A stretch of 64,000 nucleotides of DNA. Source: a virus. Lineage: Duplodnaviria > Heunggongvirae > Uroviricota > Caudoviricetes. The notes below the pieces were generated by a model. That model was not told where the DNA came from and searched no databases. It saw only the letters and a program-made list of their open reading frames with translations. This document shows, piece after piece, positions 47,970-49,995 of this stretch. Numbering within the stretch: position 1 is the stretch's first letter; the number at the start of each line of letters is the position of its first letter. Made by a program: the position numbers and the translations under genes. Location: IMG/VR virus record IMGVR_UViG_2579778842_000003. The stretch is one strand, 5' to 3'.

Positions 47970-47986
47970 AAATTTATTAGAGCAAT
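47970..47986 (-). promoter_or_regulatory. C1 operator, perfect consensus, overlapping the dmt stop and upstream of the tRNA genes
   Basis: - strand reads exactly ATTGCTCTAATAAATTT. Confidence 0.65.
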
Positions 47987-49995
47987 ATACCCAAAACGTC
48001 ATGAGCTACACCTCGAGTGTCCCCCTTACAAGACACAGAACGTCTGGCAAAAAGATGTTCCACTCTGAAGCCACTGTCATGATAAAGCTCTCTGATGTTT
48101 GGCGCGCCACTGTTAGTAATGAGAACCTTTGCACCTCGACGATGAGCATCCGTCAACAGAGACACCAGGCGTTTTTGCTCTTCAAACTTAAAGTCATGAC
48201 CGGAATAGTTCGTGAATCCCTCTGTATTTGGAAGCGGTTCATACGGCGGATCGCAAAAGATGACATCTCCTTCTCCGGCAGCTTCAATCACCGCTGCAAA
48301 ATCACCGCATACAAACTCAGACCGCCCTTCCGCACCGAGGAAGGCTTCCATCTCCTGTAATGGGAAATACGGAGTTTTATACTTCCCATAACCGACATTG
48401 AACTCACCGGCCTGGTTGTAACGCGTCAATCCGTTAAAACAATGTCGGTTCAGGAACAAAAACGCCGCTGCGCGATGTAAATCATCATAGACTTGTTTGT
48501 TAAACGCATTCCGTACTGCCAGGAATCCCTCCTGGGTGTTGTAGTCCTGGAAGAAACGATGTGCCAGAGTGATAAGTGAATGCGCCTCGCGTTGCAGAGT
48601 CTTGTAAAAGTTAATCAGGTCAGCATTCACATCATTTAGCAGATTTTCCTGGTATCCGGCATTCATGAAGACAGCTCCACCACCGACGAAAGGTTCAATC
48701 AGGCGCTTCCCTTCTGGCAAATAGCGAAAGATTTGTTCCAGAACACCAAATTTTCCACCAGCCCATTTGAATATGGACCGTTCGAATTCTGCCGCTGGTT
48801 TAACTTTTCGCTCTTTTGTTTCACGCCCTTCATTCTGCCGACATGCAGCCTTGGTTATCCGCTCGCCAATCCAGCGCATTACTGGTATCGCCATACTATT
48901 GCCGATCGCTTTGTAACGCGGTCCGTCAGCTGCAAGCATTGCGGCCTCTTCTTCGTTCAAATCAGGAGAGTTTTTGCGAAGGTATGCCAGTTCATCTGAA
49001 GAAACTTTTTTACGCTTTTCCGTAGGGATCAATGTATGTCCATCAGGAAAACCTTGCAGCCTTTCACATTCGACAGGGGTAAGACGGCGCATTCTACCGT
49101 CGCCGAGCAATACAATTGGTGCTTCATGGTTACATGTCAAAGTTGGTGCCGAATTATCGGTTTTTATCTCAGCCCCTCCTTGCCCATGTGCCATGGCAAC
49201 TATGTTTGTATCATCGCAAGATCTGATAGCGATGTCTGAAGTATATCTGGTAGTTTCCTTCCCCTCGCCTCTGCTCGGCGCAATATTCCGGCGCACGCCT
49301 TCGAACTCAAAAAGTACCGTTGCGGGATCGAGGTCTGTTCGAGCACTTGCGACAACAAACACGCGTCGGCGTCGTTGTGCCACTCCGAAGTATTGGGCAT
49401 CAAGGATTCTCCAGGCCACCTTTCGCTGCGGTCCATAAATACAACCACACTGCGGCCACTTTGGAACATGGCAACCGGTTTTGCCATCCCACCGCCAGAA
49501 CGCGTTGCTTTTTCCTGATTCAGGTCGATCACCTGGTTCAAATGGCACATCTTCTCCAGCCAATCCAGCAAGGAAACATCCGAAGGCGTTATCTGCCGAT
49601 GACAAGACTCCTGGGACATTTTCCCAGACGATAACGGCTGGTTTGAGAAATGACTCAGCCCGTTTGTCGTCAATTGCATTTGCAAGCTCCACATACTTTA
49701 AAGTTAGCGCGCCACGCTCATCATCAAGCCCACCACGTAATCCCGCGATACTGAATGCCTGACAAGGTGTTCCCCCGACGAGCACATCAGGGGATTCGAT
49801 TTCCCCAGCCAGGACTTTTTTGGCAAGTTTTGTCATGTCGCCAAGGTTGGCGACATGGGGCCAGCGGTGCGCAAGAACGGCAGATGGAAAAGACTCGATT
49901 TCAGCAAACCACGCAGGACGCATACCCAACGGTTCCCAGGCAATACTCGCGGCTTCAATTCCACTGCAAACAGATCCATAGCACAGCTCTTTCAC
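47977..49995 (-). CDS. dmt: Dmt, fused C5-cytosine and Dam-like N6-adenine DNA methyltransferase
   Basis: 672 aa; N-terminal C5-MTase motifs ([21 protein letters not shown]); C-terminal Dam-like FKWAGGK...[10 protein letters not shown] and DPPY. Confidence 0.8.

Follow-up and report, generated by a model that had tools for sequence, protein, structure and literature searches.

The window, i.e. the whole stretch of 64,000 nucleotides analysed here, comes from a P1-family phage-plasmid, and the long methyltransferase gene on its minus strand is dmt, which is named dam in phage P7. Taken as a whole, the data are quite likely explained by a Dmt protein of two autonomous AdoMet-dependent modules, a C5-cytosine methyltransferase half, which appears to be active, and a Dam-type N6-adenine methyltransferase half, which are joined by a short charged linker and expressed from a C1-controlled operon. 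The dual methyltransferase as such is already known from the annotations published for P1 dmt and P7 dam: the GenBank entries of both phages describe the product as a bifunctional methyltransferase acting on N6 of adenine in GATC and "perhaps" on C5 of cytosine. The residual value of the locus lies in whether Dmt makes m5C, and on which sequence. P1 is a standard tool of genetics, and P1-like phage-plasmids often carry resistance genes. The features of the locus are compiled in Table 1.

Table 1 Features of the dmt locus and the pac site. Positions refer to the window; motif assignments are based on alignment.
Feature	Position	Strand	Remarks
dmt CDS	47977..49995	minus	672 aa, GTG start, TAA stop (ORF listing)
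C5-cytosine methyltransferase half	48826..49995	minus	aa 1 to ~390; PF00145, TIGR00675, M.HhaI alignment, Foldseek
Motif I variant VCSGIEAAS (putative AdoMet binding)	49945..49971	minus	CxGxE replaces FxGxG
Motif IV, GGTPCQAFS context	49741..49776	minus	aa 74-85; aligns to M.HhaI AGFPCQAFSISG
Motif VI WENVPG (ENV)	49609..49626	minus	aa 124-129; aligns to M.HhaI MENVKN
Motif VIII QRRRRVF (QxRxR)	49357..49377	minus	aligns to M.HhaI QKRERIY
Variable target-recognition cassette	49090..49273	minus	aa 241/248-302; homology to reference P1 ends at 49274 and resumes at 49089
Motif IX	49045..49089	minus	aligns to M.HhaI RKLHPRECARVMGYP
Motif X (AIGNS; GNS)	48880..48909	minus	aligns to M.HhaI FGNSVVINV
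Charged inter-domain linker	48781..48840	minus	aa 386 to ~405; between Pfam domain boundaries
Dam-type N6-adenine methyltransferase half	47980..48780	minus	aa 406-672; PF02086, TIGR00571
FKWAGGK	48751-48771	minus	aa 409-415
FVGGGAVF (FxGxG AdoMet motif)	48667-48696	minus	aa 434-443 (FVGGGAVF = aa 436-443); N-terminal of DPPY
DPPY (catalytic)	48241-48252	minus	aa 582-585
hrdC (RdgC-family protein)	49992..50897	minus	301 aa; PF04381, E 3.7e-98
uhr, first gene of the operon	50890..51174	minus	94 aa; phrog_2213, E 7.9e-64
Pdmt promoter	51217..51246	minus	-35 TTGTTT (51241-51246), -10 TACCAT (51217-51222); by position
C1 operator Odmt (Op68) ATTGCTCTAATAAATAT	51246..51262	minus	same position as annotated in P1 and P7
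Bivalent C1 operator Oban a/b	47959..47986		overlaps dmt stop codon; annotated in P1 and P7
pac site	19779..19965		eight clustered (T/C)GATCA hexamers; CGATCA = TGATCG on the other strand

The earlier note on this DNA had proposed a two-domain fusion of a C5-cytosine and a Dam-like methyltransferase, and profile models, residue-level alignments to proteins of solved structure (M.HhaI and E. coli Dam) and a fold search all agree with this proposal; the protein strings quoted in its support are all located in the translation of 47977..49995 (minus), a segment that holds exactly one ORF. In the domain-HMM analysis suggested there, PF00145 (C-5 cytosine DNA methylase) matched the N-terminal half (E 2.5e-36, 126.2 bits, cutoff 22) and PF02086 (D12 N6-adenine MTase) the C-terminal half (E 7.3e-57, 193.4 bits, aa 411-646). 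The NCBIfam models TIGR00675 dcm and TIGR00571 dam scored 116.4 and 251.2 bits, respectively, which is above their curated cutoffs of 100.65 and 114.85; these domain matches far exceed what chance would give. The whole product matched the DNA methyltransferase profile phrog_116 with an E-value of 1.7e-273.

M.HhaI is the best match of the C5 half in both sequence and fold. The two proteins have in common the motif order I-IV-VI-VIII-recognition domain-IX-X, the catalytic Cys, ENV and QxRxR; motifs VI, VIII, IX and X follow each other in canonical order, with the variable block located exactly between VIII and IX. The catalytic Cys context, whose lack was to speak against the fusion according to the earlier note, is present, as Cys78 (codon 49762-49764, minus) within GGTPCQAFS aligns to the PCQ cysteine of M.HhaI (GFPCQAFS). 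Residues 9-16 of motif I and G74, G75, T76, P77, C78 and Q79 of motif IV are invariant in all 34 aligned family members, and the same applies to W124, E125, N126 and V127 of motif VI among the 34 relatives. The window protein differs from M.HhaI in motif I, which reads CSGIE and not FxGxG. It also has about 40 additional residues between VI and VIII, with a Cys-rich stretch among them, and an insert of 30 aa between IX and X. An AlphaFold model of aa 1-400, based on the 34-sequence alignment, reached a mean pLDDT of 68.9, with values below 50 in the linker (aa 390-400), and it was poor both in the catalytic loop (aa 78-94) and across the recognition region (aa 232-290, below 50). Used as a Foldseek query, the model returned M.HhaI and DNMT3 as top matches with a probability of 1.00. 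Since the catalytic loop and the recognition region are modelled weakly, the structure is uninformative on specificity and the Foldseek result supports the fold alone.

The C-terminal half aligns to residues 4-266 of the 278 residues of E. coli Dam (E 1e-57) and to DpnM (2dpm; E 9.5e-45), and it has KWAGGK, FxGxG and DPPY in common with E. coli Dam (2g1p). In contrast to E. coli Dam, it is fused to another enzyme, and Y119, P134 and R137 of the host protein are F, G and K in the window. The score against NF008152, the host Dam equivalog, was 245 bits and thus below the cutoff of 441 (NCBIfam); the Dam half is a phage member of the Dam family (alpha class) and not an orthologue of host dam. A comparison of 259 of its codons with P1 gave only 3 nonsynonymous sites. 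At the positions that correspond to Dam N120, L122, R124, N126 and Y138, which we take to be the GATC contacts in the Dam-DNA structure, the alignment shows no change, and most GATC-contact positions of Dam are presumably kept in the window. From the sequence, we infer GATC specificity for this half. The GATC activity of the P1 enzyme was reportedly described by Sternberg and Coulby in 1990. The pac region of the window holds 7 GATC within 170 bp and is 98.7% identical to P1 pacA, i.e. the annotated primary pac cleavage site together with an IHF site. Methylation of GATC by P1 is established (PMC12707154); its pac site has to carry GmATC, and in Dam- hosts the phage cannot do without dmt (PMC12707154, PMC11437467).

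At the nucleotide level, the gene is 100% identical to MH422554, MH445380 and MH445381 over its length, and NZ_CP039862 is an example of a plasmid with the same identity over dmt. P7 dam is 95.8% identical and colinear across all 2019 nt; its product (YP_009914544, 672 aa) has the same length and cassette, lies in the same uhr-hrdC-dam operon with Op(dam) and with Oban over the stop codon, and differs by point differences only (95% amino-acid identity). The reference P1 gene is 97% identical and matches in two pieces, i.e. outside the cassette. The reference P1 Dmt (YP_006537, 754 aa) shares the operon, the operators, the Dam half and the catalytic core of the C5 half, but in the window the part between motifs VIII and IX has been exchanged, and position 74 is W in P1 and G in the window and all other family members. 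The window allele is the common short form of the gene, which is P7-type.

The synteny uhr-hrdC-dmt, followed by Oban and tRNA-Asn/tRNA-Thr and with Odmt upstream, is that of the P1-family dmt locus. The TGA stop codon of hrdC overlaps the GTG start codon of dmt as GTGA, and the reading frames of uhr and hrdC share 8 nt; both genes are annotated in P1, P7 and MH422554, and uhr has no Pfam match. The earlier note had placed dmt in a C1-controlled operon with an RdgC-like gene. The RdgC-family gene and an upstream C1 operator are indeed found; the operon, however, consists of three genes (uhr, hrdC and dmt) and not two. The operator-like 17-mer ATTGCTCTAATAAATAT differs by one mismatch from the query 17-mer ATTGCTCTAATAAATTT, and an operator scan of the window allowing up to 3 mismatches gave 12 matches versus 0.44 expected. 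Control of P1 dam by Op68 was reportedly described by Citron et al. in 1989. The coordinates of Pdmt were transferred from the P1 annotation to the window sequence, and this promoter is absent from a sigma-70 consensus scan, with only 4/6 matches in each hexamer. An Rfam scan of 44500-51500 revealed three tRNAs only; a 'dicF-like region' is annotated downstream of dmt in P1, but no dicF-like RNA reached the Rfam gathering score at this place in the window.

Relative to reference P1, the stretch that separates motifs VIII and IX is cleanly exchanged: a cassette of about 62 aa in the window takes the place of one of about 144 aa in P1, without detectable similarity between the two. The window cassette, whose PTL stretch aligns to ITL of the M.HhaI target-recognition domain, is unrelated to that of P1, partly common to SJ46 and of the same type as in P7. 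This type is present in 184 PLSDB plasmids, and at least four cassette combinations occur among P1-like plasmids; in the window there is just one cassette, and it has one PTL motif, whereas SJ46 and CP027575 carry several. In addition, a homing intein of the LAGLIDADG type (Hint + LAGLIDADG) is found in roughly one in four P1-like plasmids, inserted between P77 and C78, i.e. at the catalytic Cys, as seen in OP279344, RCS47 and 133 plasmids; a Pfam search and the allele alignment revealed no intein in the window dmt. Neither the recognition cassettes nor the intein of dmt were found described in the literature searched. With respect to the C5 target, the alignments to PDB matches cover core motifs only, and no annotated relative carries a recognition-site name. 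Among 4-mer palindromes of the window, CTAG lies far below expectation (observed/expected 0.24) and GGCC moderately so (0.68); neither is attributable to Dmt, and we rejected palindrome avoidance as a clue to the target.

Multispecific C5 enzymes of Bacillus phages (SPR, phi3T, rho11s, H2) are phage-encoded and expressed lytically, as here, and relatives of the window protein resemble them in their tandem cassettes, each with a (P/H/F)TL-type motif. In the Bacillus phage enzymes, tandem recognition domains confer several targets (PMC12707154, PMC8936443). They differ in being without a Dam fusion, and the single-cassette window copy is in turn without tandem recognition domains. The C5 half might be one of a family of cytosine methyltransferases of enterobacterial phages and phage-plasmids; these enzymes would be built from cassettes, range from mono- to multi-specific and parallel the Bacillus-phage enzymes but be Dam-fused, with cassettes re-assorted to change the restriction resistance of progeny DNA and with a homing intein on the catalytic Cys making cytosine methylation splicing-dependent in about a quarter of the plasmids. 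We put this forward tentatively and give it somewhat less than an even chance. Under this reading, P1, SJ46 and CP027575 would carry two to four cassettes in differing combinations and the window and P7 one, and the window allele would be the minimal, single-specificity and intein-free form.

Several other explanations deserve consideration. A joining of adjacent dcm-like and dam-like genes by a sequencing or assembly error could be suspected from the phage record ON470615, in which the region is split into three CDSs. However, the same frame runs uninterrupted through hundreds of plasmids as well as P1, P7, SJ46 and RCS47, a protein cluster of identical length (672 aa) comprises 991 member sequences, and similar fusions exist at only 57-73% identity (P0032, P0037, P0109). 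Since the frame is conserved across hundreds of records, we dropped the artefact, which we regard as having practically no chance of being true. Another question is whether the C5 module is catalytically silent, serving as a DNA-binding or targeting appendage or being an evolutionary remnant, so that the protein installs m6A only. The "perhaps" of the P1 and P7 annotators would fit such a protein, as would the NCBI pipeline name, which is 'Dam family' only, and the treatment of Dmt purely as a Dam enzyme in reviews (PMC12707154, PMC11437467); in the literature searched (full text), no experimental report of m5C made by Dmt was found. Motif I is non-canonical in departing from FxGxG, and the phage tolerates a probably damaging change at an otherwise invariant position, namely G74W in the laboratory reference P1. 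On the other hand, all catalytic residues are invariant in the 34 relatives, which include standalone C5 enzymes without a Dam half, and the C5 core is under purifying selection as strong as that on Dam, with dN/dS values of 0.05-0.18 in the core from motif IV to VIII versus 0.00-0.15 in Dam, although each C5 segment contributes few changes (1-17 synonymous, 1-8 nonsynonymous). Functionally constrained sites are the usual location of inteins, and both an intein at the catalytic Cys and the shuffling of cassettes make little sense in a dead domain. Moreover, M.BatI is an active m5C enzyme with a CxGxxG motif I (PMC8936443). We consider a silent module quite improbable; the C5 half is probably active and would form m5C.

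Another possibility concerns the products of the gene and is compatible with the two-module enzyme preferred here, namely that an internal promoter and start give rise to an extra Dam-only protein of about 320 aa, maybe the main late product, by which methylation of adenine would become partly separated in time from that of cytosine. The P7 record predicts a late promoter, LPdam2, inside the gene, and the identical sequence is located at about 48989-49007 of the window; the next in-frame ATG is M353 (48939) with GAGG 5 nt ahead, and the Dam-type profile phrog_56 matches from aa 353 on, starting at profile position 1. LPdam2 is, however, a prediction and does not appear in the P1 record, a generic sigma-70 scan finds no promoter there, and no protein evidence for the short form was found. 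P1 late promoters do not follow the sigma-70 consensus. On balance, we think that a Dam-only product is unlikely but conceivable.

For the two-module Dmt, the following course of events can be envisaged. The dmt gene is translationally coupled behind uhr and hrdC, and C1, bound to an operator that overlaps the promoter, would hold the operon off in the plasmid prophage, in line with established P1 biology. Upon induction or infection Dmt would be made, and, as established for P1, its Dam half would methylate GATC and thereby allow cleavage of the GATC-rich pac site and packaging. Since GATC methylation is required at pac, Dmt would free the phage from the host Dam. The C5 half, if active, would place m5C at a target sequence that the cassette at 49090-49273 determines, and this specificity would be common to the window allele and P7, unlike that of reference P1. 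Its most likely role would be to shield progeny DNA from m5C-sensitive restriction enzymes in new hosts. As m5C would make the DNA a target of methyl-dependent restriction (McrA, McrBC) in certain hosts, such an anti-restriction benefit may not be guaranteed. Natural pairs of alleles are available for methylome comparison, i.e. P7-type and P1-type cassettes, G74W, and intein-plus and intein-minus forms, and the polymorphism of dmt alleles could explain differences in host range or restriction sensitivity among P1-like elements.

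The dmt gene of the window (47977..49995, minus strand; dam in P7) is one open reading frame of 672 aa with a GTG start, as given by the ORF listing, and all peptide strings quoted in the earlier note were found in it. The proposed fusion of a C5-cytosine methyltransferase with a Dam-type enzyme was borne out by curated profiles for both halves, and the entire protein matched phrog_116 ('DNA methyltransferase', E 1.7e-273). The gene is 100% identical to MH422554, MH445380 and MH445381 ('Punavirus P1 / Escherichia phage P1' records) and 95.8% identical to dam of phage P7, with which it is colinear throughout, whereas the 97% identity to dmt of reference P1 (NC_005856) is split in two pieces. 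It is a P7-type allele of the P1-family dmt locus, and its product is a member of both the C5 and the Dam families, with the non-canonical motif I as the sole soft point in this membership. A sequencing artefact as the origin of the long frame was excluded, since hundreds of records, as well as fusions down to 57% identity, keep the frame. The fusion is real, yet already known, because the P1 record describes a 'bifunctional DNA methyltransferase' acting on N6 adenine in GATC and 'perhaps at C5 cytosine', and the P7 record a 'hypothetical bifunctional DNA methyltransferase' for N6 adenine and 'perhaps C5 cytosine residues'.

Features of the dmt locus and of the Dmt protein (nucleotide positions refer to the window unless stated otherwise)
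Feature	Position	Details
uhr	50890-51174	phrog_2213; 8-nt overlap with hrdC
hrdC	49992-50897	RdgC family, PF04381, E 3.7e-98
Odmt/Op68 operator	51246-51262	ATTGCTCTAATAAATAT, one base off the query 17-mer
Oban, bivalent C1 operator	47959-47986	encloses the dmt stop codon; perfect 17-mer at 47970-47986
Intein of relatives	L004 (OP279344) 1732-2754; also in L005 (RCS47)	insertion point equals window 49764/49765
PF00145 (C5 methyltransferase)	N-terminal half of Dmt	E 2.5e-36
TIGR00675 (dcm)	N-terminal half of Dmt	116.4 bits, cutoff 100.65
PF02086 (D12 N6-adenine methyltransferase)	C-terminal half of Dmt	E 7.3e-57
TIGR00571 (dam)	C-terminal half of Dmt	251.2 bits, cutoff 114.85
Motif IV (catalytic Cys78)	Dmt aa 74-85	12 aa, quoted earlier; M.HhaI AGFPCQAFSISG
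Motif VI	Dmt aa 124-129	WENVPG, quoted earlier; M.HhaI MENVKN
Motif VIII		QRRRRVF; M.HhaI QKRERIY
Recognition domain		PTL; M.HhaI ITL
Motif IX		16 aa; M.HhaI RKLHPRECARVMGYPD
Motif X		12 aa; M.HhaI YKQFGNSVVINV
FKWAGGK	Dmt aa 409-415	quoted earlier
10-aa string	Dmt aa 434-443	quoted earlier
DPPY	Dmt aa 582-585	quoted earlier

The motifs of the C5 half were aligned with those of M.HhaI by phmmer against PDB sequences. The catalytic Cys context, on which the C5 assignment hinged in the earlier note, is present, with Cys78 aligned to M.HhaI. Motif I is atypical, i.e. VCSGIEAA in place of FxGxG, and is strictly invariant in 34 of 34 aligned relatives, many of them standalone C5 enzymes with 50-60% identity (BLASTP); M.BatI, an experimentally active prophage m5C enzyme, was reported with a CxGxxG motif I (PMC8936443). 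An AlphaFold model of Dmt aa 1-400 (mean pLDDT 68.9) was confident in the Rossmann core and poor in the catalytic loop and the recognition region, and its best Foldseek matches were M.HhaI and DNMT3A/B (probability 1.00). Six close relatives of the C5 half (BLASTP matches P0047, P0089, P0100, P0103, P0106 and P0118) are fused to PF05869 (phage Dam) and not to PF02086; the combination of C5 and N6-adenine domains was therefore assembled with two different partners.

The Dam half carries KWAGGK, FVGGG and DPPY and aligns to residues 4-266 of the 278 residues of E. coli Dam (E 1e-57) and to DpnM (E 9.5e-45). In alignment numbering, the equivalents of E. coli Dam N120, L122, R124, N126 and Y138 are identical in Dmt, whereas Y119, P134 and R137 are replaced by F, G and K; the functional roles of these residues are those known from the Dam-DNA structure. 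Against the NCBIfam host-Dam equivalog the Dam half reaches 245 bits, short of the cutoff of 441 bits, and it is a phage Dam-family enzyme, neither an orthologue of host dam nor a captured copy of it. Compared to P1, nonsynonymous differences occur at only 3 sites (259 codons compared). According to PMC12707154 and PMC11437467, P1 packaging needs GATC methylation at pac, and P1 cannot do without dmt in Dam- hosts. The window contains, inside pacA, a region (19779-19965) that matches the annotated pac cleavage region of P1 at 98.7% identity; its eight (T/C)GATCA hexamers form two clusters. By this match it is the site on which the Dam activity, encoded about 28 kb away, is known to act.

A C1-controlled operon of dmt with an RdgC-like gene had been claimed as well, and this stood as far as hrdC and the operator are concerned, but had missed uhr as a third gene, for which a Pfam profile search gave zero matches. 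The hrdC stop and the dmt start overlap within the bases GTGA, and a ribosome-binding site of the GGAG type precedes them by about 10 nt. The operator coincides exactly with Odmt/Op68 as annotated in P1 and P7, abutting Pdmt, and across the window the count of operator-like sites, allowing up to 3 mismatches, is 12 (0.44 expected). Citron et al. 1989 reportedly dealt experimentally with how Op68 controls P1 dam. Because the dmt stop codon falls within Oban, the last part of dmt doubles as the regulatory region for the tRNA-ban transcription unit downstream.

In the window dmt, the segment between motifs VIII and IX (49090-49273) is cleanly swapped relative to reference P1; equivalents were compared at the P1 locus (L001) and two further loci (L007, L008). 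Homology to P1 ends at 49274 and restarts with the opening codon of motif IX (49089), and the swapped segments (about 62 aa in the window, about 144 aa in P1) have no visible mutual similarity. Dmt of SJ46 (807 aa) and of plasmid CP027575 (862 aa) represent other combinations of shared cassettes, some of which are also seen in C5 methyltransferases that Enterobacter and Klebsiella prophages encode as standalone enzymes. The cassette is single in the window and in P7; P1, SJ46 and CP027575 have between two and four, and several cassettes contain (P/H/F)TL-type motifs. Among 498 PLSDB plasmids with dmt, 184 carry the window-type and 257 the P1-type cassette. Such re-assorted cassettes suggest a family of C5 enzymes that would range from mono- to multi-specific, in which the window Dmt itself is not a multi-recognition-domain enzyme.

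Relatives also carry a 341-aa insertion exactly between P77 and the catalytic C78, namely OP279344 (a P1 isolate), RCS47, Ro157c2YLVW and 133 PLSDB plasmids. It starts with CFTAGHMVL (Cys1), ends in VVHN (terminal HN) before CQAFS (Cys+1), contains TNDH and two LAGLIDADG-like blocks, and scores above the cutoffs of Pfam Hint_2 and LAGLIDADG_3. This intein is absent from the window dmt. Its identity of at least 99% among 128 of the 133 plasmids, together with its occurrence alongside both cassette types, suggests recent homing. The cassette mosaic and the intein at the catalytic Cys, of which no description was found in the literature searched, are mainly features of the relatives and less of the window.

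The best reading is that the C5 half is probably an active enzyme. Its catalytic residues are invariant across the 34-member alignment, and dN/dS values (Nei-Gojobori, six alleles), which are based on small but consistent counts, amount to 0.05-0.18 in the motif IV-VIII core and 0.00-0.15 in the Dam half; the exchange of recognition cassettes and the intein in relatives count as further arguments for C5 function, all of this evidence being indirect. That the C5 module is silent appears improbable to us, the only points in its favor being the absence of data, the hedged annotations and a G74W substitution in laboratory reference P1. This change (GGG to TGG at codon 74, L001 3220-3222), located directly before the TPCQ motif, is unique to reference P1, as all five other alleles and all 34 relatives retain G74, and the C5 module of that laboratory strain may be defective. 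Compatible with an active C5 half, albeit rather unlikely, would be a separate Dam-only product of about 320 aa, to which LPdam2, annotated for P7 as a predicted late promoter (identical sequence at 48989-49007, minus strand), and, downstream of it, an in-frame ATG (M353, 48939, minus strand) preceded by GAGG with a 5-nt spacer would point.

About 180 nt beyond the end of dmt, past Pban, lies a hairpin that resembles a terminator (TGCCCATCTTCGGGTGGGCG, then a run of T; 47777-47796, minus strand), where P1 is annotated with a 'dicF-like region'; an Rfam scan there returned zero families at gathering score. Three minus-strand tRNA genes match the P1 set, i.e. Asn(GTT) at 47228-47303, Thr(TGT) at 47150-47225 and CAT at 45270-45345, the last being Met according to ARAGORN and tRNA-Ile2 in the P1 annotation. 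Between tRNA-Thr and the tRNA(CAT) gene located upstream of ban, the region 45373-46200 and 46181-46417 (both minus strand) includes an SPFH-domain lipoprotein-like ORF of 275 aa, so annotated in MH422554, whereas reference P1 has plp, upl and tciA/B/C at this position; the region is another allelic replacement near dmt. Across the whole window, CTAG is strongly depleted (16 observed vs 66 expected, Markov model) and GGCC moderately (168 vs 248), and GATC is near expectation (257 vs 249-262 in lower-order models).
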